From positions 4,025,509 to 4,089,508 of the forward strand of contig OY969556.1 of NCBI GenBank assembly GCA_963701015.1: DNA of 64,000 bases, in the 5' to 3' direction. A program made the position numbers and the translations under genes. The notes beneath the pieces are model-generated. The model was not told the DNA's origin and made no database searches. It saw only the letters and a list, made by a program, of their open reading frames with translations. Below, one piece after another: positions 5,916 to 30,637 of this stretch. The DNA is from an uncultured Bacteroidota bacterium (lineage in GTDB: Bacteria > Bacteroidota > Bacteroidia > Bacteroidales > DTGW01). Each line of letters opens with the position of its first letter. Within the stretch, counting starts at the first letter, position 1.

Positions 5916-6990
5916 TGGGAAAAGTTAACACTTCCCCGCTATTGAGGGTCTATGTCTACAGGGCAAACGCATTAAAAACGACTGTATAGGGTTAATAAAT
6001 AGCATCTTATGGCATGTTTTACTTTTTTACCTCCCTGCCCTCCTTAAAAAGGAGGGTAAACTGAGTTGTGGACTGCGAATATGATCGCCCAGTTATAGCT
6101 CCTTTTAAAGTGGTTGGGGTTAATAAAAAACAAACAAATTTTAATGCGTTTGCCCTGGCTATGTTTATGCACATGTCTCTAAATCCCATATATTTCGCCC
6201 CAATGGGGCTATTAAAATTCATTTATATTATTCTTTAAACATATCATCACTAAGTGTTTTTTAATATTTTATTGGCTCCAGAGGGGTTAAATATTTATAG
6301 ATATAAACAATTATCCTGTTATTCTAGTCCCATGGGGACGAAATATTCAAGATGTGAGTATATCCATGTCTTGTAAAGGGGAGGAAACAAATTTATTTCT
6401 TTCTCCCTCTCCGTTTGGAGAGGGTTGGGGAGAGGTCAAATTCTTTTATTCCTCTTCTTTTTGGCTTGAACCAGTTGGAGGATTAAAGGAAAACGGTGGA
6501 CGGAAAAAGGATTGAAATAATGAGCGAGGGATGTCCACTTTTGAATTTATTCTCCTTCTTTTTGGCTTGAAACCCGAAGGGCTCAACGAAGTTAACCAAA
6601 AAGAAGCAAAACTTAGCGAAGCGTTCTCATGACCGAAGGGAGTAAAGTTCAAGTTTCAAGTTTCCCCTCCTTTTATAAGAACGGCAAAGCCCTCATGACC
6701 GAAGGGAATAACGGGTTGGGGTGGTTCTTAAGGCTCGCGGATGATCGGGCAATTTAACCTCACCCTTTCTCCCTCTCCAAAAGGAGAGGGAATAAAAATT
6801 TGAGTGCTGTCGTTCACGGTTGGTACGATCTGAAAGCCAATCAGCTCGTACAAAAGGGAACCCTCTACGCCAGCTGGGGCAGCTGGCAATGAGAATATCT
6901 AAAATTATTAGGCTCTGGCATACATGGATGGTGCGAGTTTGTTGGTCAGTCAAAGGTACTGACAACATGTTCGTGCCAGTTGGTTGCTAA
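5850..6990. repeat. GC-hairpin mosaic region (modular REP/BIME/BOX-like repeats)
   Basis: A dense series of short palindromic units shared with 20.1-28.6 kb, often in opposite orientation. Examples are CTCCCTCTCC..GGAGAGGGTTGGGGAGAGG and CTTAGCGAAGCGTTCTCATGACCGAAGGGAGT. ORFs here have nonsense-like low-complexity translations. Confidence 0.85.
5959..6157. repeat. 199-bp segment bounded by a perfect 19-bp inverted repeat
   Basis: CAGGGCAAACGCATTAAAA at 5959-5977 pairs with TTTTAATGCGTTTGCCCTG at 6139-6157. The 161-bp interior contains a CCCTCCTTAAAAAGGAGGG hairpin. Confidence 0.85.
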
Positions 6991-7098: not shown

Positions 7099-8277
7099 TT
7101 ACTTTATTGATCCACCCCATATAACATTTTCGACATTGCGGGGTGGATGATTGCTTATTATTGTATAATTATTTAACCCGATGTTTTTGGATAATTTAAT
7201 TAATTGTTGCAAATCAGCAGGAGTAGCTGTTTCTTTTACCTCAAAAGCATGACTATTGTTTAAAACAAAATCAATTTCATGCCCGGTTTTCAAGGCATAA
7301 TAATTTAATATACCAAAATGATGCAACTGGTTGTAAATAGCATTTTCAAATAATACCCCACCCGAAACTTTTGCAAGTCGATTCAATATTCCATTGTCGC
7401 AAAAAAACACCTTTTTTGCCTTAACAATTTCACGGTCAGGGTTTTTTGACGTTACCGCAATACGTTGAATAATATAAGTTTTCTCAAACAATTCAATATA
7501 ATTTGTTACGGTTGGCTTAGACAAGCCTGTAAGAGCAGAAATTTTCGCAAAATCGAGTTTGGAAGCAGTACGAGAGGCCAACATGATTAATAAATTTCTT
7601 ATGTTGTTGGCATTCTTAAAATCAGAAAGCCACTTTATATCTATGTTAATGTACGAACTTATTAAATCTTCAAGAATATCTGTTTTTTGATTGATAGCAT
7701 CTGTTAGTACAACTTCGGGCATACCACCGAAATTTAAATATTCATTATAATATCCTTGTAGCCTTTCATAATCGTTTTGCTGAAATACCTGTTTGCTAAA
7801 GTTGAACGGAGTCCACGCAACTGATTTAAAAGTCAGGAATTCACCAAAGTCGAGTGGGTAAAGCTCAAATATTTTTTTCCTACCGGCTAATGATTCCGAA
7901 AAAAGGTTTTTTAAATAGTAAGAGCTCGAGCCTGTAATGATGAATTTAATACTATAATTGTCGTACAAATATTTTACAACGCTCGGCAGGTTTGGTAATA
8001 ATTGAGCCTCGTCAATTGCAATTGCCAATTGAGAGTCAAAATTTATGCCTCGCTGTTTTAGTGCCAATATTATGTTTTCGTAATTCGGGTCATTAAACAA
8101 ATTGCGGTTATCAAGTCGTTCTAAATCAAAATAAACACTGTTGTTTTGAAAATATTCGTCCAGCAATTTTTTTACCAGGGTAGTTTTACCAGTACGTCGT
8201 AAACCTGTAATTATGCTAACTTGTGGTTGTTTGGCATGTTCTACAAGCGCTGCATGTATTTTTCGTTCAAAAAACAT
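7099..8277 (-). CDS. AAA+ ATPase (AAA_14 + DUF4143 type)
   Basis: 392-aa ORF with Walker A (ITGLRRTGKTTL) and the architecture of the widespread DUF4143 ATP-binding proteins. Confidence 0.75.
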   Translation of the reverse strand: MFFERKIHAALVEHAKQPQVSIITGLRRTGKTTLVKKLLDEYFQNNSVYFDLERLDNRNLFNDPNYENIILALKQRGINFDSQLAIAIDEAQLLPNLPSVVKYLYDNYSIKFIITGSSSYYLKNLFSESLAGRKKIFELYPLDFGEFLTFKSVAWTPFNFSKQVFQQNDYERLQGYYNEYLNFGGMPEVVLTDAINQKTDILEDLISSYINIDIKWLSDFKNANNIRNLLIMLASRTASKLDFAKISALTGLSKPTVTNYIELFEKTYIIQRIAVTSKNPDREIVKAKKVFFCDNGILNRLAKVSGGVLFENAIYNQLHHFGILNYYALKTGHEIDFVLNNSHAFEVKETATPADLQQLIKLSKNIGLNNYTIISNHPPRNVENVIWGGSIK

Positions 8278-9695: not shown

Positions 9696-9706
9696 GTGAA
9701 TCTTTT

Positions 9707-9737
9707 CCCCTCCTGGGAGGGGATTGGGGTGGGTTTC
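9707..9737 (+). repeat. hairpin + TTGGGG unit (REP-like)
   Basis: CCCCTCCTGGGAGGGGATTGGGGTGGGTTTC. The same architecture occurs about 20 times in the window. Confidence 0.85.
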
Positions 9738-18774: not shown

Positions 18775-20112
18775 TTAAATAGTTTCTGAATTAATCCAAT
18801 CAATTTTTGGCATTATTACACCAGGCCTGTTGTCGGCATATTGTTTGTTAAGTCCATCAATGTTAATAATAGAAAAGGGATATATAACTTTTTCAAAGCT
18901 TATCCATTTTACATTATGTATTCCAATGGCAATATTAATAATATAGGAACCAGGTTTTAAAAAATTTGAAGGAATTATTGCAGTTGATTTATAATTTCCA
19001 ATTTCAAAAGTCTCTGTTCGTATAATATCATCATGAAAAGTTCTGAAAAGTGTAAGCCCACTTTTAGAATCAATTAAATCAAAACCTATTCTTAGCCCAC
19101 TTATTTTTTTCTTTACAAAATATTCATATTCAATAATTATTTCATCTTTTGTATAAAACTCATTAGCATTTGATCCTTTCTGATATATATTTAACTTTTT
19201 AAGTTTAAAATATTCATCATCTGGTAAATTTATTTCTGCCAAAGAATCTCTGCTTTCTTTATTATTATTGGCAGATGATAAATAATATTCAATACCTTCA
19301 TTAACATTACCATTATAAACTGTTGTTCCGTTTTGAAGTACATATAAATTATTGCATAAATTCGCAATAGCAGTCATATTATGGCTCACAAATATAACAG
19401 TTCGGCCTTGTCCCTGGCTTACTTCCTGCATTTTGCCAATGGCTTTTTTCTGGAACTCGGCATCGCCCACGGCCAATACTTCATCAACCACCAATATTTC
19501 CGGCTCCAAATGGGCTGCCACTGCAAAGCCCAGGCGCACGGTCATACCGCTACTGTAACGTTTTACGGGAGTGTCAATGTATTTTGCTACGCCGGCAAAA
19601 TCAACAATTTCGTCCAGCTTCTTGTCAATTTCCCACTTGCGCATGCCCATTATGGTTCCATTCACGTAAATGTTTTCGCGGCCGGTCATTTCGGGGTGAA
19701 AGCCCGTGCCAACTTCCAGTAGGCTGGCAATACGGCCTTTTACTTTTATACTGCCCGTGGTGGGAGAGGTTACCTTGGAGAGTATTTTTAGCAAGGTGCT
19801 TTTACCGGCACCGTTTTTGCCTATAATACCCAGCACTTCGCCCTGCTTAACTTCAAGGTTAATATCCTTTAAAGCCCAAACTAATTCGGCCTCCCCCCTG
19901 CCCCCTCCATGAGAGGGGGAGTTAGCCTTCCCCCCTTTGGGGGGATTGAGGGGGGCTAATATATTTGTCTGCCCTACTTTGGTATAAGGGTCGGGTTGCC
20001 CAAGCAGGTTCATGCGCCACCAGCGGTTAAGGTCGTGGCTAAGCGTGCCGGTGCCTATTTGCCCCAGGCGGTAAAGTTTCGAGAGGTTTTCAATTTTAAT
20101 TACGGTGGACAT
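18775..20112 (-). CDS. wzt: O-antigen/glycan ABC exporter ATP-binding protein Wzt, with a C-terminal glycan-binding-type domain
   Basis: Walker A GKNGAGKSTLLK, signature YSSGMTVRL and Walker B ILVVDE, plus an extra C-terminal domain of about 190 aa. It carries an in-frame GC-rich palindromic insertion at 19888-19956. Confidence 0.85.
   Translation of the reverse strand: MSTVIKIENLSKLYRLGQIGTGTLSHDLNRWWRMNLLGQPDPYTKVGQTNILAPLNPPKGGKANSPSHGGGRGEAELVWALKDINLEVKQGEVLGIIGKNGAGKSTLLKILSKVTSPTTGSIKVKGRIASLLEVGTGFHPEMTGRENIYVNGTIMGMRKWEIDKKLDEIVDFAGVAKYIDTPVKRYSSGMTVRLGFAVAAHLEPEILVVDEVLAVGDAEFQKKAIGKMQEVSQGQGRTVIFVSHNMTAIANLCNNLYVLQNGTTVYNGNVNEGIEYYLSSANNNKESRDSLAEINLPDDEYFKLKKLNIYQKGSNANEFYTKDEIIIEYEYFVKKKISGLRIGFDLIDSKSGLTLFRTFHDDIIRTETFEIGNYKSTAIIPSNFLKPGSYIINIAIGIHNVKWISFEKVIYPFSIINIDGLNKQYADNRPGVIMPKIDWINSETI
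19888..19956. repeat. REP-like double-hairpin unit inserted in frame within wzt
   Basis: CCCCCTC-catga-GAGGGGG and CCCCCC-ttt-GGGGGG followed by ATTGAGGGGGG. On the coding strand it is translated as ILAPLNPPKGGKANSPSHGGGRGEAE. Confidence 0.8.
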
Positions 20113-20775
20113 TGTGTAAATTACAAATTACAAAGGACAATTTGCAAAATTAGCGAATTTATACCAAAACGGAAAATGAAAAAGGGAAAAGGCCTCTCCC
20201 CAACGCTACTCCCTTCGGTCGTGAGAACGCTGCGCTTAGTTCTCCCAAGGAGAGGGAGAAAGATAAAAAATAATTTCTTAAAGTCCCTTTCTTTAGGAAA
20301 GGGTTGGGGATAGGCTACTTTAAAGAGCGGTGGCCAGATCATCCGCGTAAGCCAGCGTTGGCTTTGAGCGAGGGGTTTCGGATGATCTTGAATTTTACTC
20401 CCTTCGGTCATGAGAACGCTTCGCTAAGTTTTGCTTCTTTTTGTGTCAAGACAAAAAGAAGAGGAATAAAAGAAATTGGCCTCTCCCCAGCCCTCCCCTA
20501 AGGAGAGGGAGAAAGATAAAAAATTGTGAATTTACTTTTCTTTGCCTGCCATACATAGAAAAGGTAACAAAAGAAAAATCACTACGGATACCATCCCCAA
20601 GCCAATCTATTCGCACATGCCACCGCCACTTGTGCCGATTGGCTTTCGGATCGCACTATCCGTGGACGTCAACGCGCAAAGCAATTTAATGAATTATCTT
20701 CTTATCATGCGAAGCATGAAAGAGTGTGAGCCAGATCATCCGCGCGAGCCAGTGTTGGCTTTGAGCGAGGGGTAT
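20113..20775. repeat. GC-hairpin mosaic region upstream of wzt
   Basis: Contains a vestigial heptamer tract (20166-20192), the GATCATCCG...CGGATGATC long hairpin (twice), the 32-bp mini-insert (20208-20239, 20397-20428), hairpin+TTGGGG units and the 89-bp repeat (20579-20667). Confidence 0.85.
20145..20164 (-). promoter_or_regulatory. conserved promoter-like box (TAATTTTG on the coding strand), 33 nt upstream of the wzt ATG
   Basis: The plus strand reads CAAAATTAGCGAATTTATAC, so the coding strand carries TAATTTTG, which matches the Bacteroidota -7 consensus TAnnTTTG. The box recurs upstream of 5 other starts. Confidence 0.55.
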
Positions 20776-20841
20776 AGTTTCGAGAGGTTTTACCTTCGGT
20801 GAGAACGCTTCGCTTAGTTCAATTTTAATTACGGTTGACAT
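20776..20841 (-). pseudogene. duplicated 5' end of wzt (38 bp of CDS) interrupted by a 28-bp mini-insertion
   Basis: AGTTTCGAGAGGTTTT[ACCTTCGGTGAGAACGCTTCGCTTAGTT]CAATTTTAATTACGGTTGACAT compared with the uninterrupted 20075-20112. Confidence 0.9.
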
Positions 20842-20887
20842 TGTGTTAATTACAAATGACTAATTACTAATTACAAATTACAATTTA

Positions 20888-20907
20888 CAAAATTAGCGAA
20901 ATTATAA
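20888..20907 (-). promoter_or_regulatory. conserved promoter-like box copy
   Basis: CAAAATTAGCGAAATTATAA, 47 nt upstream of the relic wzt start. Confidence 0.45.
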
Positions 20908-20908
20908 T

Positions 20909-21141
20909 AAAACGGAAAATGGTTGGCGGAAAACGGTAAACGGAGTAAGGTAAAAGGGTAAACGGAGAAGGGAGAACGGAAAACGGTTGGCGGAAAACGG
21001 AAGAAGGGGAAAGGAAAACGGAAAACGGGGAATGGAGGAAGGAGGACGGAAAACGGTAAACGGAAAACGGTAAACGGAGAAGGGAAGACGGTAAACGGAG
21101 AAGGGAGAATGGAGGAAGGAAAACGAGGAATGGAGGAAGGA
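20909..21141. repeat. purine-rich heptamer minisatellite, array 1 (about 33 units)
   Basis: GGAAAAC/GGTAAAC/GGAGAAG/GGAGAAC units stay in a continuous 7-bp phase, with one 8-bp slip. Confidence 0.9.
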
Positions 21142-21183
21142 TAAATGAAACTGTCTTATTTGTTATTGAAACCCACCCCTTAG

Positions 21184-21199
21184 CCCCTCCCGGGAGGGG
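21184..21199 (-). terminator. candidate hairpin terminator or insulator (perfect 16-bp palindrome)
   Basis: CCCCTCCCGGGAGGGG lies 18 nt downstream of the stop of the 21218-22006 ORF. There is no clear U-tract. Confidence 0.3.
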
Positions 21200-21217
21200 A
21201 AATTGAATTATGTTTTT

Positions 21218-22565
21218 TCATTTTACCACCTCCCAATGCCCCCCTTTATCGGGGCCAATGCGTTTAATTGCTTTTCTGTCTTTTAATATTTTTAAATATC
21301 TTTGAATAGACCGTTCTGTAAGGGTCATTCTTTTTGCCAAATCGGAAGCTGATAATTGATTGTTTATTTTCAATAATTTAATTATTTCTATCTCATTTTC
21401 TACGACATTTTCTACGACATTTTCGGTGTCCTTATCGAATGTTTCAATATTTGCAGTCGTCTTTTGTTTGGTATAACTTAATTCAACAAAAAAACCGTTT
21501 GGAATTTCGTTGTAATCGAAATTCATTGTCGGGTATTGCCTAAGTTCATCACGTATCCGTTTAAACCCACTGCCATATTTTTCAATATCGCCGGTTAAAT
21601 AAAATGCTTCGGCCAGTAATTTATTTCGGGCATAGGCCTGATAATTATTGGTTTTTAAATCGGCAATAGTTAGATTGCCAAACAAAGTGCCGGGATTAAA
21701 AAAAGTAATGCTTTTGTCGAATATCTTAATTTGAATATCAACAGGGCTTAAATAATCGCGATGGATTAGCGAGTTTAATACCAATTCCCTGAGCGCTGGC
21801 AAGGGGTATTCAAATATTTCGGTTCGTTGTGTTGTTCTACCTGAAATTTCGAAAGCTACTTTTATTTGCGAAATTAAATATTTCATGGTTTCATCAACAG
21901 CCTCAAACAAGGGTAACCTCAACATTTTATCGTCAATAATAAGCGATGGGGTTTTAAAACGGCCTAAATGCACATTATACGAAATATCGGTTTTTGCAAA
22001 AAGCAAGTATGCTGCATTTGTAATTTTATTATTTGAAATGAACCTGAGTTTTTCGAGATTTTCAATCGTAGTCCCTTCTAAATTTAAAACGCCCGATAGT
22101 ATTTACTTTCTGTATAAATTTATCTACCTTTTTGAGGTCAATATCCACTAAATTTATATTATTTGCAGGATATGAATCCCATGAAACCTGCAGCGATTGC
22201 ATGCTTAAATCGGCTATCTCAAGTGCAGTCAACTGGTGATTCGAGTTTTTTACCCTTTTATAATAACGGCCTTTAAACGAAATTGGCTTTACCGGAAATT
22301 CATGAATAATTAAGGCAACTGTTTTTTTGCCTTTATAATTTATTAATTCAATATCAGGAATAATGGAGGGTTGTGTTTTTACTTTTATTTCGTTTATCCA
22401 TTTTTGAAAAGTTTCTTTGCCATACGTGAAGTTTTTATTAATACTTCCGTCATCGTTAATGCCAACAAATACTTTACCCCCTTTACAATTGGCATAGGCA
22501 ACCAAAGTTTCAATAACAGTATCGTTAAAGCCTGATTTATATTCTATGTGCTCGTTTTCAAGCAT
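21218..22565 (-). pseudogene. Schlafen/AlbA_2 + HATPase_c_4-like + wHTH putative regulator, split by a frameshift
   Basis: ORFs 22062-22565 (AlbA_2 N-terminus, HIEYKSGF...) and 21218-22006 join to read ...GRFKLEGTTIENLEKLRFISNNKITNAAYLLFAKTD if one T is removed from the run at about 22080-22090. Confidence 0.75.
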
Positions 22566-22598
22566 TAGGTAGTATTTTTTTTAACACTTTACCAATTA

Positions 22599-22618
22599 CA
22601 AAATTAGTGAATTTATAA
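22599..22618 (-). promoter_or_regulatory. conserved promoter-like box copy
   Basis: CAAAATTAGTGAATTTATAA, 34 nt upstream of the AlbA_2 ORF start. Confidence 0.5.
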
Positions 22619-22902
22619 TAAAACGGAAGACGGTAAACGGAGAAGGGAAAACGGAGAAGGGAGAACGAAAAACGGAGAATGGTAAACGGAGAAGGGAAAA
22701 CGGAAAACGAGGAATGGTAAACGGAGAAGGGAGAACGGAAAACGGAAAACGAAAAACGGAGAATGGTAAACGGAGAAGGGAGAACGGAAAACGGAAAACG
22801 GAAAACGGGGAATGGAAAACGGAGAAGGGAGAACGGAAAAAGGGAAACGGAGAAGGGAAATCGAAAAACGGAAAAGGGAAAACGGAGAAAGGAAAACGAG
22901 GA
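22619..22902. repeat. purine-rich heptamer minisatellite, array 2 (about 40 units)
   Basis: Same heptamer family, with a 49-bp higher-order repeat (GAGAATGGTAAACGGAGAAGGGAGAACGGAAAACGGAAAACGAAAAACG). Confidence 0.9.
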
Positions 22903-23099
22903 TAATTTTTTAAAAATTAGGGCAAAATTTCAAAATTATGCAAATTCGTATTCCACACTATTTACAGGTATTTGTCATCATTTACTTTAATTAAAAATAT
23001 CTATAGCTTTTTCAATTAAATAGGCTTTTATCTCTTCTTCATTAACAGCCGGTACAATATATTCAACAGGCTCGGAGTAATCAATGTCATTAAAATAGG

Positions 23100-23603
23100 C
23101 TAACTGGCACTGAATTGTTTCTCGGAAAATAAATCATTGTATATAGTTAAGGCCTTTTCTGAAACTTGTTTAATGGAATAAAATTTTCTTAAAATAAAAT
23201 ATAAATCAACATAATCTTTCCATTTCGATCGTCTGCTCATGGCAAATGCCTTCATAGCAGCTAATGTTAATAAATCAGGCATTTTTAAATACCCCTCAAA
23301 TTCACACGACGCAATTATTTGATAAGGGTACTGAAAAAAAGTAAATTTTACATCTTGAATAGTTACATTTAGCTGTTCATAAACCCTTCTGTTAACAATA
23401 TACTTTTTATGTAACGAATCAATCTTTTTAAGCAACCTTTTAGGTTGGATTTCATTTTGTTTAAACAAATCAAAATCAATAGATCTTCTATGGCCAATGT
23501 GTAATGCAATAGCAGTTCCTCCAACAAGATAAAATTCTCTTTTAAACAATTTCACCAATGGCAATAATTCTAATTGATCAGTATTTAAAATTTCTTTATG
23601 CAT
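23100..23603 (-). CDS. AbiEii/AbiGii-type nucleotidyltransferase toxin-like protein (3' end frameshifted)
   Basis: LVGGTAIALHIGHRRSIDFDLF motif. A further 37 codons (QLAYFNDIDYSEPVEYIVPAVNEEEIKAYLIEKAIDIFN*) continue in another frame down to 22987. Confidence 0.65.
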   Translation of the reverse strand: MHKEILNTDQLELLPLVKLFKREFYLVGGTAIALHIGHRRSIDFDLFKQNEIQPKRLLKKIDSLHKKYIVNRRVYEQLNVTIQDVKFTFFQYPYQIIASCEFEGYLKMPDLLTLAAMKAFAMSRRSKWKDYVDLYFILRKFYSIKQVSEKALTIYNDLFSEKQFSAS

Positions 23604-23871
23604 ATCGTGAGAAAAGAATAAAAAAGTAATTATAAATTTCAGGAAAGAAATTCATTTTCTTCCTACCTTGCATATTATTAAACACTTTTGCCACGTTTTC
23701 AATACCCATTATTGAAAAAAGTTTATGCACTGCATCTAATGAGCCATAATTTAAAATGTGTTCTACCAATAATTCGTGGCTTATATTCTCCTTTTCTTTT
23801 TCGGGTGTGTACCAAAAAAGGGAGCTGTTTTGGCGTATAAATGCTTTTAGTTCTTCAGTATTTTCAGGCAT
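23596..23871 (-). CDS. small partner protein of the AbiEii-like gene (putative antitoxin)
   Basis: 91-aa ORF overlapping the downstream NTase gene by 8 nt. Confidence 0.45.
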   Translation of the reverse strand: MPENTEELKAFIRQNSSLFWYTPEKEKENISHELLVEHILNYGSLDAVHKLFSIMGIENVAKVFNNMQGRKKMNFFPEIYNYFFILFSRYA

Positions 23872-23898
23872 CTAGATAGTATTAGAAATATAAAATTA

Positions 23899-24194
23899 CT
23901 AAAATATACTTGTAAACATTTTATATAAGGTAATTTTGCCTGCCCCGTTACGGCCAGTTATGCCCACACGGTCGTTTGTTTTATTTCAAAATTTAAATCC
24001 TTTAAAGCCCAAAAATCTTCCATTTCATCGTTGGCAATAAGCTGTCCGCCTTTAAATATTTGGCGGGTTTTAGATGCTATTTGCCGGACTTTATTGGCCA
24101 GAACATCGCGCAAAGCGGTATAACGCTCGTGCTTTTCGTGGCCTATAATATAACTTTTGCCCAGGTTCTCGGCTTTAATTACTGTATGGCTCAT
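23899..24194 (-). pseudogene. relic of a second, divergent wzt/tagH-type ABC ATPase gene (N-terminal about 90 codons, frameshifted and truncated)
   Basis: Encodes MSHTVIKAENLGKSYIIGH...FWALKDLNFEIKQ, then after a 1-nt shift DRVGITGRNGAGKITL (Walker A). Homology ends where the AbiE-like pair begins. Confidence 0.85.
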
Positions 24195-24240
24195 GAAGAC
24201 AATTACTAATTACTTATCACAAATGTCAAATGACAATTTG

Positions 24241-24260
24241 CAAAATTAGTGAATTTATAA
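24241..24260 (-). promoter_or_regulatory. conserved promoter-like box copy
   Basis: CAAAATTAGTGAATTTATAA, 47 nt upstream of the relic wzt' ATG. Confidence 0.5.
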
Positions 24261-24280
24261 CAAAACAGAAAATTGTAGTC

Positions 24281-24550
24281 GGAAGACGGAGAAGGGAAAA
24301 AGGTGGACGGAAAACGGAAAACGGAGAATGGAAAACGGAGGATGGTGGACGGAAAACGGAGAAGGGAAAACGGAAAACGGAGAATGGTAAACGGAGAAGG
24401 GAGAATGGTAAACGGAGAAGGGAGAATGGTAAACGGAGAAGGGAGAATGGTAAACGGAGAAGGGAGAACGGAAAACGAAAGACGGAGAATGGTAAACGGA
24501 GAAGGGAGAACGGAAAACGGAGAAAGGAAAACGGAAAACGGGGAAGAGAA
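24281..24550. repeat. purine-rich heptamer minisatellite, array 3 (about 38 units)
   Basis: Includes 3 perfect copies and 1 near-perfect copy of the 21-bp unit GGTAAACGGAGAAGGGAGAAT at 24386-24469. Confidence 0.9.
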
Positions 24551-24835
24551 ATAATATTTGTGAGATTGTTGTAATTTGAAACCCACCCTTTAGCCCCTCC
24601 CGGGAGGGGAAATATTTTTTCGTATCACACAAAGTGTGAAAGAGCGATGGCTTGATCATCCGAGCGAGCCTTAAGAACCACCCATTAGCCCCTCCTTTAA
24701 AAGGAGGGGAAACTGATTTGTTAACTTTACTCGACTTCGTCTAATGAACTAAGCGAAGCGTTCTCACGAGTTTTACGAGTAGCTTAGCCTTTGGCGTTCT
24801 CACGACCAAAGGGAATAAATCGCTTCGCTTAGACA
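24551..24835. repeat. conserved 285-bp GC-hairpin block (copy a)
   Basis: Collinear with 28126-28410, and partly with 26221-26345 and 21142-21215. It contains CCCCTCCCGGGAGGGG, TCACAC-aaa-GTGTGA, GATCATCCG... and CCCCTCCTTTAAAAGGAGGGG. Confidence 0.9.
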
Positions 24836-25400
24836 GCCCGCAGCTGAAATTGTATTTTTTTTATCACACTTTGTGTGAAAGAGCGTGAACCAGATCATCC
24901 GCGCGAGCCAGCGTGGGCATTGAGCGAGGGGTTTCGGATGATCTTGAATTTTACTCCCTTCGGTCATGAGAACGCTTCGCTAAGTTTTGCTTCTTTTTGG
25001 TTCATGCCAAAAAGAAGGGGAATGAATGCAAAAGATTTGCTGTTGTATTTATTATATGCAATGTTGGCTAGTAGCGATTTATTTTTCTTTGCTTGCCATG
25101 CAAAGAAAAGGTAACAAAACTTAGCGATATGGTTTACTCACTGTGGTCATGAGAACGCGTTGCTAAGTTCATGAACGAAGGGAGCAAAGGGGTTGGGGAT
25201 AGGCCTTTTGGCTTTCGGACCGCACCATCTGTGGACTCCCTACGCGCAAAGCTCAAAACTCTTTACAGTTTACAACCATTTACCGTTAACCGTTTTCCTT
25301 TTATCCGTCAAATGGTTCAAGCCAAAAATAAGAGGAATGCTGGAAAAAGCTTTATTTGTAAATTAAAATCAGCTTTAACCGCCTATCGAGGAAATGAAGT
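24836..25400. repeat. GC-hairpin mosaic region
   Basis: Same modules as 20113-20775, in similar order. Confidence 0.85.
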
Positions 25401-25426
25401 TGAATTTAACCATTTTCCCATTATTG

Positions 25427-25663
25427 TTAATATAACAATGCTTCAACTAAAATATCTTCATCAAGAATTTCCCAATGAATCCCTTCGCCACCACCAATAA
25501 ACCTATAATTTTCCCTATCTTTTTTGGAAGCATCGCGCAAACTGGGAAACCAATCAATTGGTACTGAAAGTTCTCTTCCATCGTCAAGTAAAATATGCAT
25601 CATTAAGTCTGAAAACCAAACTTTTGTTGCATTAGCCGATTTAATAATTGTTGTGATATTCAT
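25427..25663 (-). CDS. DUF2442-family small protein
   Basis: 78-aa ORF (ILLDDGRELSVPIDWFPSLRDAS...GIHWEILDEDI) that overlaps the upstream DUF4160 ORF. Confidence 0.65.
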   Translation of the reverse strand: MNITTIIKSANATKVWFSDLMMHILLDDGRELSVPIDWFPSLRDASKKDRENYRFIGGGEGIHWEILDEDILVEALLY

Positions 25664-25877
25664 TCCATTTAATATTAAGAAAGTCTAAATTTTGAATTAT
25701 TAAATTTCTTATTTCATGAATCTCTGAAGAATTAAAATGTTTTGATTTAATAATTTCAACAGGATTTAATAAAAATTTTGCGGTACCTTCTGCTTTTTCA
25801 ATATGAATATGTGCAGGAGAATGATCATTAACATAAAAGAAAAACCTGTATCCATTAATATTTAATATTGTTGGCAT
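25641..25877 (-). CDS. DUF4160-family small protein
   Basis: 78-aa ORF with a HSPAHIHIEKAEGTAKF motif. Confidence 0.65.
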   Translation of the reverse strand: MPTILNINGYRFFFYVNDHSPAHIHIEKAEGTAKFLLNPVEIIKSKHFNSSEIHEIRNLIIQNLDFLNIKWNEYHNNY

Positions 25878-25905
25878 AACAATTTAGATATTGTTTGACA
25901 AAACT

Positions 25906-25925
25906 CAAAATTAGCGAATAAAATA
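25906..25925 (-). promoter_or_regulatory. conserved promoter-like box copy (proximal)
   Basis: CAAAATTAGCGAATAAAATA, 29 nt upstream of the DUF4160 ATG. Confidence 0.5.
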
Positions 25926-25968
25926 ACTTATTGCCAATGACTAATTACTGATTATAAATGATAATTTT

Positions 25969-25988
25969 CAAAATTAGCGAATTTATAA
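25969..25988 (-). promoter_or_regulatory. conserved promoter-like box copy (distal, tandem)
   Basis: CAAAATTAGCGAATTTATAA, directly abutting array 4. Confidence 0.45.
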
Positions 25989-25989
25989 T

Positions 25990-26222
25990 AAAACGGAAAA
26001 AGGGAAACGCAGTAAGGAAAAAGGGAAAACGGAGAAGGGAGAAGGGAGAAAGGAAAACGGGAAAGGAAAACGGAAAACGGAAGACGGAAGACGGAAAACG
26101 GGGAATGGAGAATGGTAAACGGAGAACGGAAAACGGAAGACGGAAGACGGAGAAGGGAAAACGGAAGACGGAAGACGGAGAACGGAAAAAGGAAAAAGGA
26201 AAATGGAAAACGGGGAAGAGAA
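25990..26222. repeat. purine-rich heptamer minisatellite, array 4 (about 33 units)
   Basis: Same heptamer family (GGAAGAC, GGAAAAC, GGAGAAG ...). Confidence 0.9.
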
Positions 26223-26900
26223 ATAATATTTGTGAGATTGTTGTAATTTGAAACCCGCCCCAACCCCTCCCGGGAGGGGAAATATTTTTTCGTATCACAC
26301 GAAGTGTGAAAGAGCAGCGGCCGGATCATCCGCGCGAGCCAGCGTTGGCTTTTAGCGAGGGGTTTCGGATGATCTTGAATTTTTGCTTCTTTTTGGTTCA
26401 GGCCAAAAAGTAGAGGAATAAATGAAATTGGCCTCTCCCCAGCCCTCTCCTAAAGAGAGGGAGTAGGAAAGTATTAAAAAATTTGGTGCAAAATAAATTA
26501 TTTCATAAAACTTCTTTCTTTTGGAACTTAGCGAAACGGTCTCATGACCGAAGTGAGTAAAGGGGTTTGGGATAGGCACTTTGGCTTTCAGATCGCACTA
26601 TCCGTGGACGACAGCGCGCAATACTCAAGACTTTTAACTGTATAAAACCATTTACCATTCACCGTTTTCCTTTTATCTGTCAAATGGTTCAAGACAAAAA
26701 GAAGAGGAATAAAATTTAGGAGAATTGTGCTCTCAATCCCCCAGCCCCCTTTTCAAAGGGGGAAAGCCCTGCTTTACAGTATAAAACCATTTACCTTTCT
26801 CCGTTTTCCTTTTATCCGTCAAATGGTTCAGGCCAAAAAGTAGAGGAATGCAAAGCTTTTGTAATACGCGTTTAAACTATCTTCATGAACGAAGTGTATA
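26223..26900. repeat. conserved hairpin block (copy b) plus GC-hairpin mosaic
   Basis: 26223-26345 matches 24553-24670. It is followed by an empty site for the 32-bp mini-insert (T-run 26380-26384), hairpin+TTGGGG units and two AACCATTT...AAATGGTT units. Confidence 0.85.
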
Positions 26901-26967
26901 AACTCGTACAAGTTGGACATTATGTATAAATCACTAACATCTATCAACAAGCAACTTACAACCTCTT

Positions 26968-27837
26968 TTATACGGTATCAATAAAACTTCTTTCAGTACG
27001 GTTAAAGATAATTATACCTAAAAACAAAACCACCAGGGTAAAAACTGTAGTGTATATTATCCCGGTTGAACTATGGGTGCCTGAACCCAGGAATCCGTAT
27101 TTAAATGTTTCTAAAATTGGTGTCATAGGATTAGCCATAATGAAAGGGCGTAATTTGCCATGAATCATAGAAACAGGGTAAATTACAGGGGTTGCATACA
27201 TAAGTAATTGAACTCCAAATGTTATAAGAAATGTCAGGTCGCGGTATTTAGTTGTTAGCGAAGTGAAAATAATCCCGAATCCCAAGCCAAGTCCACCCAT
27301 CAATAAAATAAGATACGGTGTTAACAACATATAAATATTGGGATGAATTGACAAATTGTGTTTTAATAAATAATAAATAAATACAGCTAAAAACAAACCA
27401 AATTGGATGCCAAATTTTATTAATCCCGATAAAACTTTTGACATTGGTGAAACAAGCCTTGGGAAATAGACCTTACCAAAAACATTGGCATTATCGGTAA
27501 ATGTCTTAGATGTTATACTAAAGCATTCTGAAAAATAATTCCAAACAATAATACCTGCAAGATAGAATAGCATCATGGGAATACCATCGGTAGGCATTTT
27601 GGCAATATTACCGAAAACCACAATATATATAGCCGTGGTTAAAATAGGTTGAAGTATAAACCAAATTGGACCAAGAACGGTTTGTTTATAAACCGTAACA
27701 ATGTCACGTTTAACAAACATGGTAAGTAAGTCACGATACTGCCAAATTTCTTTCAGGTTAATATCGAGAAGATGTTTCTTAGGCTGTATTATTTGAGTCC
27801 ATTGCTCTTCCGTAGTATTAAATTTTTCTTCGGGCAT
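26968..27837 (-). CDS. wzm: ABC-2 type glycan/O-antigen exporter permease Wzm
   Basis: 289-aa ORF with 6 predicted TM segments and a typical N-terminus (...EIWQYRDLLTMFVKRDIVTVYKQTVLGPIWFILQP). Confidence 0.85.
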   Translation of the reverse strand: MPEEKFNTTEEQWTQIIQPKKHLLDINLKEIWQYRDLLTMFVKRDIVTVYKQTVLGPIWFILQPILTTAIYIVVFGNIAKMPTDGIPMMLFYLAGIIVWNYFSECFSITSKTFTDNANVFGKVYFPRLVSPMSKVLSGLIKFGIQFGLFLAVFIYYLLKHNLSIHPNIYMLLTPYLILLMGGLGLGFGIIFTSLTTKYRDLTFLITFGVQLLMYATPVIYPVSMIHGKLRPFIMANPMTPILETFKYGFLGSGTHSSTGIIYTTVFTLVVLFLGIIIFNRTERSFIDTV

Positions 27838-27918: not shown

Positions 27919-28125
27919 TGGAAAAGGGAGTTCGGAAAACGGAAGACGGAAAAGAGAGAAGGGAAGTCAATTACAAATTACGAATGACAAATTGGAAAAC
28001 GGAAAACGGAAGACGGAAGACGGAGAAGGGAAAACGGATAAGGGAAATCAATGACAAATTACAAATTACGGATGACAAATTGGAAAACGGAAGACGGAGA
28101 AGGGAAAACGGAGAACGGGAAAAAG
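27919..28125. repeat. heptamer minisatellite, array 5 (about 29 units, interleaved with A/T heptamers)
   Basis: GGAAAAC/GGAAGAC/GGAGAAG runs are interrupted twice by ATTACAA-ATTACGA-ATGACAA type heptamers, in the same 7-bp phase. Confidence 0.9.
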
Positions 28126-28410
28126 AAATAAGATTTGTGAGAGGGGTGTAATTTGAAACCCACCTCAACCGCTTCCGGGAGGGGAAATAATTTTTCGTAT
28201 CACACGAAGTGTGAAAGAGCGCGAGCCTGATCATCCGCGCGAGCCTTAAGAACCACCCCTTAGCCCCTCCTTTTAAAGGAGGGGAAACTGATTTGTTAAC
28301 TTTACTCGACTTCGTCTCATGAACTAAGTGAAGCGTTCTCACGAGTTTTACGAGTAACTTAGCAACGCGTTCTCACGACCAAAGGGAGTAAAACGCTTCG
28401 CTAAGTTCTA
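28126..28410. repeat. conserved 285-bp GC-hairpin block (copy c)
   Basis: Collinear with 24551-24835. Confidence 0.9.
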
Positions 28411-28639: not shown

Positions 28640-29770
28640 TTAGAGTAGTGGTTGTTCTAAATCTAATACTTCTTTTCGAATCCATATTTGGAAAAGGGGA
28701 TCAGAGAAAACATAACCTTTATTAGTCTTCAAAATCAAACCTTTATTCAATAGAGCATGTATGGTACGTGAAATATTAATCAATTTTACATCAATAGTCG
28801 AATAGGGTTTTAAGCTTTCAGCCAAAGCCAATAAAACTGTCCGTTGCTCACGACTGCCAGATATGTCTTCCCATAATTTTTCGAGATAACCTTTTTCTGA
28901 ATCCAAAAGTAAGGACAGAATTAAATCATAAGCTTTTTGGGTATCGTTGGGTAATTCATTAACCAATAGTAAATGCTGTAGCACAAGTGATGAATAGTAT
29001 GGGTGCCCTCCGGTAAAATCGAGTAATTTATCTATTAGCAGATTATTTACCTTAATTCCCGATAGGTTGAGTTTTGAAGTATAATATTTTTTATAGGTTT
29101 TAGAGTCAATACAGCCTATGTGAACAATACGGGCAAATCGATAAAAAGGCGATTTTGCAGTGGTAAACAATTGGTTCATCACCGATTCGTAGCTTCCTGA
29201 AAAAATATAACTAACATTTTTTTGGGTTTGCATTTTAGCCCGCAGCATTTTTGCAACGTCCGTTCCGCCAAGTTTCTCAATGTCCCCAAATTCATCAAGC
29301 CCTATAATTAATTGTTTTTGGTATTTTAATGAAAACTTATCGGCAAAGTCAATGCTGTTTTCAAGTAATTCCCAAGGATCACTTTCGGGTTTGGCATATT
29401 TCAGTACAAAATCAAATTCTTCAATAGTACTGCGTAATTCAACATTTTTAATCAGTTCGCCTAAGTTCTTTTTTACCAATTGAATAATATTTTCGAGTTT
29501 CTTATTTTCTAAAATCTTGGAAGTTAATTGTTCTGATAGTCTCGTAATGTCGCGGGTAGTAAAAATATCAAGGTATGCAGTAAATTCCCCTTCATTCTTC
29601 AATAAGTCCAATATTTTAAATACCAGTGAGGTTTTACCAAAACGTCTGGGCGCTATTAAAACAACACTTTGTCCATTTTTCAATAAATTGCAAAGTTCAG
29701 CGATTTCTTTTGTACGCCCAATAAAATCAATACCCGTTACCGGTTTCCCTACTTGTAATGAATGTGTCAT
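28640..29770 (-). CDS. AAA+ ATPase (archaeal-ATPase/Orc1-like P-loop protein)
   Basis: 376-aa ORF with Walker A (IAPRRFGKTSL) and Walker B (IIGLDEF). Confidence 0.6.
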   Translation of the reverse strand: MTHSLQVGKPVTGIDFIGRTKEIAELCNLLKNGQSVVLIAPRRFGKTSLVFKILDLLKNEGEFTAYLDIFTTRDITRLSEQLTSKILENKKLENIIQLVKKNLGELIKNVELRSTIEEFDFVLKYAKPESDPWELLENSIDFADKFSLKYQKQLIIGLDEFGDIEKLGGTDVAKMLRAKMQTQKNVSYIFSGSYESVMNQLFTTAKSPFYRFARIVHIGCIDSKTYKKYYTSKLNLSGIKVNNLLIDKLLDFTGGHPYYSSLVLQHLLLVNELPNDTQKAYDLILSLLLDSEKGYLEKLWEDISGSREQRTVLLALAESLKPYSTIDVKLINISRTIHALLNKGLILKTNKGYVFSDPLFQIWIRKEVLDLEQPLL

Positions 29771-29942: not shown

Positions 29943-30485
29943 TTATTTATTGATAAGTATTTCTGAATTCTCAACAAAATTCGATTCCTGGATTCGTCTT
30001 AAACTTGAAGGGTGTATTTCTACCAGCAAAGATTGATTAATTGCATCGATTTGCAATAATGCTCTTTTCTTTCCTTTGTAAGTTACTAATGTACCACAGA
30101 ATCCGGTTAAAGCACCGCGATAGACTTCTACCATCTCCCCGTATTCAAATAAATCATAGCTAACTTCAAATTTCTCTGTAGATTTTAAAAGCATTTTCAG
30201 GAATTCAATTTGATAGTCGGGTATTTTTGCCGGTTGAAATTCGAAGGATACAAAACCCGCAACACCGTCAATTGCTCTTACAATATGATATTTCTTATAG
30301 TTGGTGCGAACAAAAACATACGATCGGAATAAAGGCATTTCAACCATTTTTTTTCTGTCATGCCACTGGCGAAGGGTTTTTTGTAATGGCAAATAGGCTT
30401 CAATGCCATGCTCACATAACCGGGCATAAGCAACCTTCTCACTTCGCGACCGCACATAAATTGCATACCAATGAAGTTGCAACAT
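29943..30485 (-). CDS. UpxY-family (NusG/RfaH-like) transcription antiterminator
   Basis: WYAIYVRSRSEKVAYARL...PLFRSYVFVR plus a C-terminal KOW-like region. The ATG at 30485 is preferred over the longer ORF. Its position at the head of the glycan locus fits the family. Confidence 0.8.
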   Translation of the reverse strand: MLQLHWYAIYVRSRSEKVAYARLCEHGIEAYLPLQKTLRQWHDRKKMVEMPLFRSYVFVRTNYKKYHIVRAIDGVAGFVSFEFQPAKIPDYQIEFLKMLLKSTEKFEVSYDLFEYGEMVEVYRGALTGFCGTLVTYKGKKRALLQIDAINQSLLVEIHPSSLRRIQESNFVENSEILINK

Positions 30486-30637
30486 ATAACTAATTTTGGG
30501 GATGGTAAATATAAGTAATAATGTGCTGATTTGCCAATGAAACAATGCGCCAATGATTAAGTAGTAATTGAATTAGGATATAGAAAATTCGCTTACTGTT
30601 ATCATTTTAATTTACAATTAGTGCATTAGCAAATTGT

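Follow-up and report, generated by a model that had tools for sequence, protein, structure and literature searches.

This work concerns a GC-rich segment of wzt, the gene for the ATPase of an O-antigen/polysaccharide ABC transporter, in 64,000 nucleotides of contig OY969556.1 (assembly GCA_963701015.1, positions 4,025,509 to 4,089,508, forward strand; the window in what follows) from an uncultured Bacteroidota bacterium of the Bacteroidales lineage DTGW01. The segment, at window positions 19888-19956, is predicted to be an inverted pair of class II purine-motif intrastrand triplex motifs (TMs) of the class known as BoxC, potential intrastrand triplex (PIT), or TM elements. Taking all the evidence together, this pair, referred to here as the doublet, probably represents an old in-frame insertion of palindromic TMs whose DNA-level structure is maintained while the transporter continues to work. 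Alignments show that the doublet replaced part of a linker of 10-11 codons, the variable distal part of the β1-β2 connection of the nucleotide-binding domain (NBD), and that its stems and third tracts appear, at the level of sequence, almost unchanged while neighboring synonymous sites became saturated.

Predicted Triplex Motifs in Frame Within wzt

The 69 nt of the segment make up exactly 23 codons, which are in frame and hold zero stop codons. The initial annotation of this DNA had described two hairpins here, and both are present as described, each with a perfect 7-nt stem (complementarity 100%). Since a third tract is present also at hairpin 1 (CTCCCCC at 19891-19897, i.e., GGGGGAG on the minus strand), the segment consists of two complete units in inverted orientation. 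The features concerned are the following.

18775..20112, minus strand: wzt, O-antigen/polysaccharide ABC transporter ATPase, 445 aa, with N-terminal NBD and C-terminal carbohydrate-binding domain (CBD)
20005..20043, minus strand: predicted cytosolic gate helix, codons 24-36, within the extended β1-β2 connection
19888..19956, minus strand: doublet, predicted palindromic pair of TMs, wzt residues 53-75, APLNPPKGGKANSPSHGGGRGEA; plus strand of 19888-19956, ggcCTCCCCCctgCCCCCTCcatgaGAGGGGGagttagcctTCCCCCCtttGGGGGGAttgAGGGGGGc
19929..19955, plus strand: Unit B, predicted class II TM on the template strand, TCCCCCC ttt GGGGGGA ttg AGGGGGG
19929-19945: hairpin 2, (T)CCCCCC-ttt-GGGGGG(A), followed by ttgAGGGGGG up to 19955
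19920..19928: spacer of 9 nt between the units, agttagcct on the plus strand
19901-19919: hairpin 1, CCCCCTC-catga-GAGGGGG in plus-strand reading
19891..19919, minus strand: Unit A, predicted class II TM on the coding strand, CCCCCTC tcatg GAGGGGG cag GGGGGAG
19846..19884, minus strand: strand β2, codons 77-89, LVWALKDINLEVK, beginning right after the insert
19795..19821, minus strand: Walker A motif, GKNGAGKST, codons 98-106, with columns invariant in the homolog alignment

In each unit, 7 of 7 triads are of an allowed kind and mismatches are 0; the blocks measure 7/5/7/3/7 nt in Unit A and 7/3/7/3/7 nt in Unit B, and the hairpins have free energies of -7.4 and -7.1 kcal/mol, respectively, as DNA. 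The doublet brings in four 6-nt and two 5-nt homopolymers of G or C, and 6 of the 22 runs of at least 5 nt that occur in the whole window fall within 63 nt here. An identical wzt sequence is found in the independent Logan assembly of run ERR11718638, and the same doublet is present in two further data sets (L002 and L003, see below); the concern about misassembly raised by the initial annotation is thereby settled, and the segment is confirmed as real and not an assembly artefact.

The two outer third tracts of the doublet (CTCCCCCC on the left, GGGGGG on the right) are mutually complementary in the Watson-Crick sense, and a three-way junction is the minimum-energy fold on either strand (-21 kcal/mol as DNA). 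This junction is an alternative to the triplex reading and applies to palindromic pairs only. As RNA, the region folds with -51 kcal/mol. These values were obtained with ViennaRNA, which considers Watson-Crick pairs only and has triplexes outside its model. Folding energy was discarded as a discriminator, as the RNA and DNA z-scores are merely -1.5 to -1.9 because shuffled C-run/G-run sequence folds equally well, and it was replaced by an architecture-specific scan. Rfam yields zero matches at gathering score for the segment, and a weak match to mir-1896 (E 0.026) was rejected as a chance match of a GC-rich hairpin. Three of the six reading frames are open in the doublet of the window and five of six in the doublets of L002 and L004, and since GC-rich units seldom hold stop codons, survival in frame is not improbable in itself. 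Tryptic peptides predicted across the insert are VGQTNILAPLNPPK and ANSPSHGGGR.

The Motif Class Across the Window

A TM consists of a pyrimidine arm, a loop, a purine arm, a linker, and a third G-tract that mirrors the purine arm; in the units of the window, the linker before the third tract measures 1-5 nt, and an A of the purine arm is met by A or T. The ITxF definition was adopted, with Y-R-R blocks on one strand, stems of 6-15 nt, loops of 1-6 nt, allowed triads G.G:C, A.A:T, and T.A:T, at most one mismatch, and the third block antiparallel to the purine arm. The scan, which was coded to the triad rule after all C-rich perfect hairpins of the window had been listed, detects 15 units in the window versus 0 in each of 50 dinucleotide-preserving shuffles. 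The initial annotation had assigned the segment the same architecture as the intergenic repeat units at 9707-9737 and 26732-26765, and this kinship is borne out by the scan. Triad mismatches are zero in 11 of the 15 units. In 14 window units, the base of the third tract is G in 73 of 75 cases in which the opposite arm has G; where the arm has A, it is A 13 times, T 14 times, and C once, i.e., A or T in 27 of 28 cases. For the same 14 units, the mirror score amounts to 0.97, compared with 0.56 when the third tract is read as a direct repeat and 0.69 when it is paired with non-cognate arms. Both wzt units conform to the ITxF rules for blocks, loops, and triads, and belong to a motif that is over-represented in the window. 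Stems of the window TMs are 6-9 nt long with varied sequences, and the 13 units other than those in wzt lie outside every open reading frame (ORF) of at least 150 aa.

The exact doublet has no further copy within the 64-kb window. An identical multi-copy miniature inverted-repeat transposable element (MITE) was considered and rejected, as the exact doublet pattern occurs at one locus among 185,579 reference genomes, namely the contig of the metagenome-assembled genome (MAG) that contains L003. No conserved target-site duplication is common to the window, L002, and L004; ATTAG, which flanks the doublet at both ends in the window, was rejected as such a duplication, as it does not do so in L002 or L004. 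When a 72-aa concatenate of the three open frames was used as the query of a peptide search, 23 candidates shared words with it and none reached E≤10; the test is weak, as the wzt product itself (P0001) was not returned.

The Linker of Wzt Homologs and the Position of the Insert

A set of 199 Wzt homologs was obtained by pooling the best 120 NBD homologs with 80 metagenome loci. In 189 of the 199, the linker has 10-11 residues and is of the DRSTKGxSEY or DRTQKAEKGE type, which agrees with the short linker (about 10 aa, DRSTKGDSEY type) that the initial annotation expected. The usual reading among the best 120 NBD homologs is ...VN-DRTQKAEKGE-LVAALRD or ...VN-DRSxKGxSEY-VWALKD; among the metagenome loci, the linker measures exactly 10 residues in 77 of 80 and contains a TM in 0 of 80. 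The same interval comprises 27 residues in wzt of the window, so that the insert, in the orthologue alignment that had been recommended, amounts to a net gain of about 16 codons. As approximately 95% of the family has a short linker, the 23-codon segment is derived. Orthologues with the same peptide do exist (P0002 and P0003); however, the sister protein P0005 and about 95% of the family are without it, and the copies in P0002 and P0003 therefore do not make it an ancestral linker, which upholds the proposal of an insertion. The idea that canonical linker DNA might attract triplex elements as a polypurine target was dropped (purine fraction 0.61 vs 0.55 in the rest of the NBD).

Pfam recognizes ABC_tran at residues 81-212 of the wzt product (3.5e-23, 83 bits) and, weakly, Wzt_C (29.2 bits, just under the gathering score of 30.4). 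The best solved relative is Wzt of Aquifex aeolicus (AaWzt; 8dku/7k2t, E 2e-65), and its alignment starts at query residue 76, directly after the segment, whose residues 53-75 lie upstream of Walker A (98-106) within the ATPase domain, in frame and stop-free, just as had been annotated. All catalytic motifs of Wzt are invariant in the homolog alignment. An AlphaFold2 model built from 52 sequences (mean predicted local distance difference test score, pLDDT, of 76.5) contains β1 at 3-15, a helix at 24-36, a coil with pLDDT below 50 at 40-75, and β2 at 77-89, followed by a C-domain that forms a β-sandwich; it matches the full-length WzmWzt structure 7k2t_A with E 5e-35 over 433 columns. The structure model that had been called for thus places the insert in a coil of low confidence that connects the gate helix with strand β2.

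In AaWzt, the extended β1-β2 connection forms a cytosolic gate helix beside a proposed substrate pocket consisting of Tyr14, Lys12, Arg20, and His31 (PMC6379404). The last residue of the insert adjoins the position aligned with His31. Wzt/TagH-type NBDs with gate helix such as that of A. aeolicus WzmWzt (PMC6379404) resemble the protein of the window in the extended β1-β2 connection, the A-loop Tyr, Walker A, and the C-terminal carbohydrate-binding domain, and the window ORF has the ABC NBD, the gate helix, the C-terminal domain, and a Wzm partner in the locus that characterize the Wzt class. The difference lies in the stretch from gate helix to β2, for which wzt of the window has about 39 residues, compared with about 22 in the usual homolog of Bacteroidota and about 6 in AaWzt; already before any insertion, Bacteroidota exceed Aquifex here by about 16 residues.

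Conservation of the Doublet Between Lineages

The doublet stands at the same place in P0002/L002, from a JGI metagenome (88% identity), where the ORF is complete with 434 codons, and in P0003/L003, from an ENA MAG. Outside the insert, the NBDs of the window and L002 differ at 18.1% of nucleotides, with a proportion of synonymous differences (pS) of 0.57, a synonymous distance (dS) of 1.08, and a nonsynonymous distance (dN) of 0.063, i.e., dN/dS of about 0.06, whereas the C-terminal domains are essentially unrelated (dN 0.85). The insertion seems to be old, predating the split from L002 and L003, rather than a recent acquisition from this genome's own repeats. As the NBD evolved with a dN/dS of about 0.06 while both lineages carried the insert, a tolerated loop is favored over a compromised gene; of the two alternatives left by the initial annotation, this is also the one that fits the coil with pLDDT below 50.

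Between the window and L002, 3 of the 69 nt of the doublet are changed, compared with a rate of 18.1% in the NBD (binomial P = 7e-4), and third codon positions are changed in 1 of 23 cases in the doublet versus 95 of 237 in the NBD. Of the three differences, two change a single loop from TCATG to TTTTG, with Phe replacing His, and the third falls in the spacer 19920..19928. All six C/G tracts are invariant, and the codons abutting the doublet on both sides are heavily diverged. The G/C runs have the same lengths in L002 and L003 as in the window and its Logan assembly, and the doublet peptides of P0001 and P0002 share 21 of 23 residues. Since a disordered loop selected as a peptide would still gather synonymous changes, something seems to act on the nucleic acid, and the low divergence points to a constraint at that level, for which selection for structure, self-correction of quasi-palindromes by template switching, and repeated acquisition of one element are candidate causes.

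In L003 (3885-4030 of contig_130192 of the ENA MAG, the same contig as L009), the first nine or so wzt codons are replaced by unrelated sequence with a stop directly upstream, and the called gene starts at Met35, without β1 and gate helix. The 5' loss may be genuine or may stem from an error of the long-read assembly. The doublet of L003 is identical to that of L002 despite the 5' truncation.

Other Insertions at the Same Linker

At the same position, P0004 (from three assemblies, L004-L006) carries another doublet, which agrees with that of the window in layout and in its length of 69 nt. In L004 it reads GCCCCACCCC ga CCCTCCCC aaa GGGGAGGG ggatcat CCCCCC ttcg GGGGGG aaaga GGGGGG ctgcc, and the linker peptide, APPRPSPKGRGIIPPSGGKRGAA, is unrelated to that of the window, although the DNA architecture is the same. 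The closest relative of P0004, P0063 (91% NBD identity), has a canonical linker; over the whole gene, L004 and L090 (P0063) are 80% identical in DNA and have the downstream gene in common, with 51 additional nt at the linker of L004. P0004 belongs to another clade, in which the doublet arose separately or was brought in by transfer. A search with the P0004 linker segment gave short fragments only, among which P0004 itself was absent and P0151 and P0220 turned up. P0058, with the linker ILSSSPGGGGREEA, may be a further TM carrier and is known from its peptide alone.

Further insertions vary in kind. In L094 (315-528), a degraded remnant of wzt, the insert measures 214 nt, contains stop codons, and has a TM at its 3' end. 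The last 33 nt of this insert (CTCCCCCTC cttg GGAGGGGG tc GGGGGGAGGC a|GAATAT, the bar marking the junction) are 88% identical, junction included, to the TM unit of L002/L003 that matches Unit A of the window. L095 (266-400) contains an unrelated GC-rich palindrome of 135 nt (CACAGGGCACAGGGCGCAGAGC...), which is in frame and gives a 46-residue linker, and the gene also has an internal deletion after Walker A. P0005 (L007), P0008 (L092), L018, and L085 have G-poor, C/A-rich simple repeats in the same linker, e.g., ACTCACTACTCACCACTCAC and AACCTCAACCTCAACCTCA. Non-canonical linkers start with N-x-L, not N-D-R, except those of P0004, P0169, and P0220. The in-frame, stop-free state is kept in four different insert sequences. 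The comparison shows that the linker, as far as these alignments indicate, is an unusually permissive site in which repeats have often been inserted, apparently an insertion hot spot, and the permissiveness of the loop would explain why insertions survive at this site.

Genomic Context

A T9SS sorting domain and the names of the nearest Wzt proteins likewise indicate that the window belongs to the Bacteroidota. The first 31 kb of the window constitute a polysaccharide locus. Its minus-strand order is NusG-like regulator, AAA ATPase, wzm, a 6.9-kb spacer, wzt, and then genes for FkbM methyltransferases, acyltransferases, and glycosyltransferases of types GT1/GT2/GT11. All 15 TMs lie within 6028-28284, inside this locus, and 0 were detected in the 36 kb of housekeeping genes (28285-64000). 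They ring inserted non-glycan "guest" genes (AAA_14/DUF4143, AbiEii, SLFN-AlbA_2 with HATPase_c_4) and fill the wzm-wzt spacer. The TMs at 6028-6791 and at 9706 stand on either side of the AAA_14/DUF4143 gene (7099-8277).

6028..6056, minus strand: intergenic TM, CCCTCCTT ttt AAGGAGGG ca GGGAGGTA
6405..6435, plus strand: intergenic TM, CCCTCTCC gttt GGAGAGGG ttg GGGAGAGG
6758..6791, minus strand: intergenic TM, TCCCTCTCC tttt GGAGAGGGA gaa AGGGTGAGG
9706..9731, plus strand: intergenic TM, first example of the initial annotation, TCCCCTC ctgg GAGGGGA t TGGGGTG
20113-26967: wzm-wzt gap with AbiEii (23100-23603), SLFN/AlbA_2 (22062-22565), HATPase_c_4/HTH (21218-22006), and dense repeats
20285..20313, plus strand: intergenic TM, CCCTTTC tttag GAAAGGG ttg GGGATAG, some 170 nt upstream of the wzt start
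21174..21199, minus strand: intergenic TM, CCCCTC ccgg GAGGGG ctaa GGGGTG
24584..24609, minus strand: intergenic TM with one triad mismatch
24676..24709, minus strand: intergenic TM, CCCCTCCTT tta AAGGAGGGG ctaa TGGGTGGTT
26256..26279, minus strand: intergenic TM with one triad mismatch
26433..26471, minus strand: intergenic TM, CCCTCTC tttag GAGAGGG ctg GGGAGAG
26736..26762, minus strand: intergenic TM, second example of the initial annotation, CCCCCTT tgaa AAGGGGG ct GGGGGAT
26968-27837, minus strand: wzm, ORF with ABC2_membrane domain, same strand as wzt and 6.9 kb upstream of it
28251..28284, minus strand: intergenic TM, CCCCTCCTT taa AAGGAGGGG ctaa GGGGTGGTT
28640-29770, minus strand: AAA ATPase
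29943-30545, minus strand: NusG-like regulator

The hairpin of 26433..26471 permits a weak second TM reading on the plus strand. Other repeats accompany the TMs. Five purine-rich tandem arrays of a 7-nt unit, (GGAAAAC)n, occupy 20909-21125, 22620-22898, 24286-24546, 25990-26213, and 27994-28128; a conserved AT-rich box (..TTTGCAAAATTAGCGAATTTATA..) stands in front of most of them, and a TM in reverse orientation comes after four, all but the array at 22620, with a module spacing of about 1.6-1.9 kb. The ORFs 22714-22905 and 22763-22990 are mere translations of one such array. A long-hairpin repeat family (CCAGATCATCCGCG...CGGATGATCTTG) is present in four copies of 72-92% identity (20322-20396, 20719-20793, 24878-24952, and 26309-26383), and the wzm-wzt spacer also holds several other repeat families of 40-195 nt. 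The Logan contig ends in this repeat-rich spacer, 121 nt upstream of wzt. In relatives, wzm lies directly beside wzt in L007, and guest genes are found in the wzm-wzt gap of L003 (AlbA_2) as well as of L004 and L005 (PIN and NTase toxin-antitoxin genes).

The wzt gene is compositionally mosaic with a break near 19335-19380, and L002, L003, L004, and L007 show the same break. Its NBD half has about 50% GC, a GC content at third codon positions (GC3) of 0.53, and 83-91% identity to relatives, whereas the C-terminal half has about 25% GC, a GC3 of 0.13, and merely 20-30% identity to relatives. The pattern suggests that the NBD is a conserved "anchor" to which exchangeable serotype-specific cassettes are joined.

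Comparison With Known Repeat Systems

The class to which the wzt units are assigned comprises the PIT elements or BoxC of Hoyne and Maher (Hoyne et al., 2000) and was investigated as TMECO by Holder et al., 2015 (PMC4666352), with the pattern CCCTCNCCC N3-6 GGGNGAGGG N3 GGGNGAGGG. Triplex formation by E. coli TMECO oligonucleotides has been demonstrated by circular dichroism and nuclear magnetic resonance, inverted ("palindromic") pairs were noted, no tie to mobile-element genes was seen, and TMECO is "always located intergenically" in E. coli K-12 (PMC4666352). TMs are associated with locally rearranged regions and genome instability, a tie that is statistical only, and purine-motif triplexes do not form in RNA (PMC4666352). 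The units of the window resemble BoxC/PIT/TMECO in the succession of C-rich arm, loop, G-rich arm, short loop, and mirrored G-rich block with the same triads, in being multi-copy far above the shuffled expectation, on both strands and also as inverted pairs, in the absence of an associated transposase, and in their location within regions that differ between relatives. They differ in their stems, which are 6-9 nt long and varied (CCCCCTC and TCCCCCC in wzt) instead of the 9-nt TMECO consensus CCCTCNCCC..GGGNGAGGG..GGGNGAGGG; this consensus is absent from every unit of the window, so that class but not family would be the same. The host, too, is different, being a member of the Bacteroidota with about 31% GC rather than a proteobacterium or cyanobacterium, and the doublet lies inside a conserved gene, in frame and apparently translated, with a triplex that is predicted from sequence. 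No earlier report of an intragenic TM was found in the searchable part of the literature.

The label "REP-like" given by the initial annotation is apt in part. Like repetitive extragenic palindromic (REP) sequences, BIMEs, and REPINs, the units are short, GC-rich, imperfect palindromes that often form inverted pairs and are scattered between genes. The hallmarks of REPs that were checked are absent, however, as window units are without a conserved 5' GTAG-type head, their stem sequences vary, and they possess a third mirror tract that REPs lack, in line with the class II TM rule. By definition, REPs lie outside genes, and they are mobilized by RAYT transposases. Among the window ORFs of at least 150 aa that were scanned (41 of 43), in 64 kb of a contig of about 4.47 Mb, neither a Y1/RAYT nor any other transposase was found.

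Palindromes within reading frames have a precedent in the Rickettsia palindromic elements (RPEs), reportedly the subject of work by Ogata et al. in 2000 and 2002. RPEs and intragenic MITE/ERIC insertions are in-frame palindromic repeats (PMC10969869), and the wzt doublet is like an RPE in being a short palindrome in frame in a housekeeping-type gene, read as an extra peptide at a place tolerated by the fold, in a host gene still under purifying selection. In-frame insertion, permissive site, and constrained host gene are thus found here as in RPEs; membership in a sequence-conserved multi-copy family, as for RPEs or MITEs, is not. RPEs measure about 100-150 bp and form sequence-defined families with a conserved peptide and many copies per genome, whereas the wzt element has 69 bp, is defined by a structural rule, and is single-copy as an exact sequence where examined. 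Instead of decaying, it is more conserved than the flanking gene. Already known, then, are the element class (BoxC/PIT/TM) and in-frame palindromic repeats (RPEs); a TM pair inside a conserved gene, the recurrence at one Wzt loop in several Bacteroidota lineages, and the conservation at the nucleotide level appear to be new within the searchable literature.

Interpretation

According to the explanation that we consider probable, the doublet would be read through as a 23-residue disordered loop rich in Pro, Gly, and Lys, and the transporter would still work, as is suggested by two insert-bearing lineages in which the domain outside the insert is under strong purifying selection. The ability to form a nucleic-acid structure would itself be maintained. 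The doublet would most likely act at the level of single-stranded DNA, as the analogy with enterobacterial TMs and the TM-littered, rearranged wzm-wzt region suggest, and the absence of purine-motif triplexes from RNA would point in the same direction. The locus matches the picture of TMs in rearranging regions given by Holder et al., and on this basis the doublet may be regarded as a structure-prone site that promotes recombination or rearrangement in the NBD "anchor," not as a protein feature. A more far-reaching version, which we regard as rather unlikely, sees in the doublet a selected DNA-level device, triplex or three-way junction, that in the anchor of a hypervariable O-antigen locus promotes pausing, breakage, or recombination and so aids the exchange of the downstream serotype cassette (CBD and glycosyltransferases); in that version, related motifs would recolonize the loop across Bacteroidota as the sole place of the anchor that tolerates them.

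Several points weigh against the explanation of an old, structurally maintained TM pair. The outer tracts can pair with each other, and a three-way junction, in mRNA too, explains the conservation of the tracts as well as triplexes do. The low divergence might have arisen without selection, by self-correction of quasi-palindromes or repeated acquisition, and the test of conservation relies on a single intact pair, the window and L002, since L003 is truncated at its 5' end. Triplex, hairpin, and recombination activities of the doublet are predicted, as is the function of this wzt, whose wzm partner is 6.9 kb away. No further TM was detected in the short flanks (2-9 kb) of L002-L006 and L009, and with the exact doublet at a single locus among the reference genomes, a link to a mobile family in the genomes of relatives is not supported. 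According to Hoyne and Maher, as summarized in PMC4666352, the E. coli elements are without promoter, terminator, or in vivo effect, and Holder et al. state that 7-nt stems are prone to chance matches genome-wide (PMC4666352).

Among the rival explanations, structure of the mRNA comes into question. At roughly nucleotides 155-225 of the ORF, the two GC hairpins, or the three-way junction that the outer C and G tracts close, would slow or gate ribosomes between synthesis of the gate helix and that of the RecA-like core, or tune wzt expression or mRNA stability. The folding energy of the RNA, the junction as minimum-energy fold on both strands, and the six tracts conserved between window and L002 agree with it, RNA does form hairpins and junctions while it does not form purine-motif triplexes (PMC4666352), and the doublets of the window and L004 share their orientation relative to the coding strand. 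As the layout is palindromic, however, the common orientation says little, the folding z-scores are weak, no Rfam family matches, and the intergenic relatives, found on either strand, follow a mirror rule in which A may be swapped for T and which would be meaningless for RNA pairing, so that we judge this explanation unlikely. Loss of function, in which the insert beside gate helix and substrate pocket, together with the separation of wzm, would have disabled the transporter before the ORF decayed, could draw on the position next to the residue aligned with AaWzt His31, on the wzm gene 6.9 kb off behind defense genes and repeats, and on the degeneration of related copies (L003 5'-truncated, L094 with stops, L095 with internal deletion). 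It is nevertheless quite improbable, as the ORF is intact in the window (445 codons) and in L002 (434), the NBD kept a dN/dS of about 0.06 across a dS of about 1.1 since the insertion with invariant catalytic motifs, frame and freedom from stops are preserved in four different inserts, and the loop, whose length differs among family members, is predicted to be disordered.

A contingency switch, with slipped-strand mispairing at the G/C runs toggling wzt by phase variation, is very improbable, although surface-structure genes are classic targets of phase variation and 63 nt here contain six homopolymer runs; in known G/C switches, the runs usually have to be 7 nt or longer, and those of the doublet are short (5-6 nt). 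A link of TMs to local instability (PMC4666352) would fit such a switch, but run lengths are identical in the window, the Logan assembly, L002, and L003, with no out-of-frame variant among them. Nor is it at all plausible that a flexible linker rich in Pro, Gly, and Lys was selected as a protein feature to which the DNA symmetry is incidental: the peptide is indeed kept at 21 of 23 positions between P0001 and P0002, and positive charges near the gate helix could contact the lipid-linked substrate (a speculation from PMC6379404), but synonymous positions are conserved too (1 of 23 changed vs 40% in the flanks), two perfect inverted motifs of 7 triads are unexpected from selection on a peptide, P0004 has an unrelated peptide with the same DNA architecture at the site, and 95% of the family is without such a linker. 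An artefact of assembly or sequencing, e.g., a chimeric join through a repeat, might be suspected in view of error-prone GC-rich homopolymer hairpins and the end of the Logan contig close to wzt, and is effectively refuted by the identical gene in an independent assembly of the reads and by the same doublet in the same frame, with diverged flanks, in the JGI metagenome and the ENA MAG.

Implications

Intrastrand TMs are a poorly understood class of repeats, and here a pair of them lies inside an ATPase domain of the essential type and is apparently translated. The locus may serve as a natural test bed in which the function of a peptide and that of a DNA or RNA structure are separable. The loop after the gate helix of the Wzt NBD accepts 16-36 extra residues, which would be useful for engineering or tagging WzmWzt. 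The phenomenon of the "coding palindrome" would be extended from Rickettsia to Bacteroidota with a different class of element, and for annotation it would follow that odd Pro/Gly-rich low-complexity loops in conserved proteins can be footprints of repeats.

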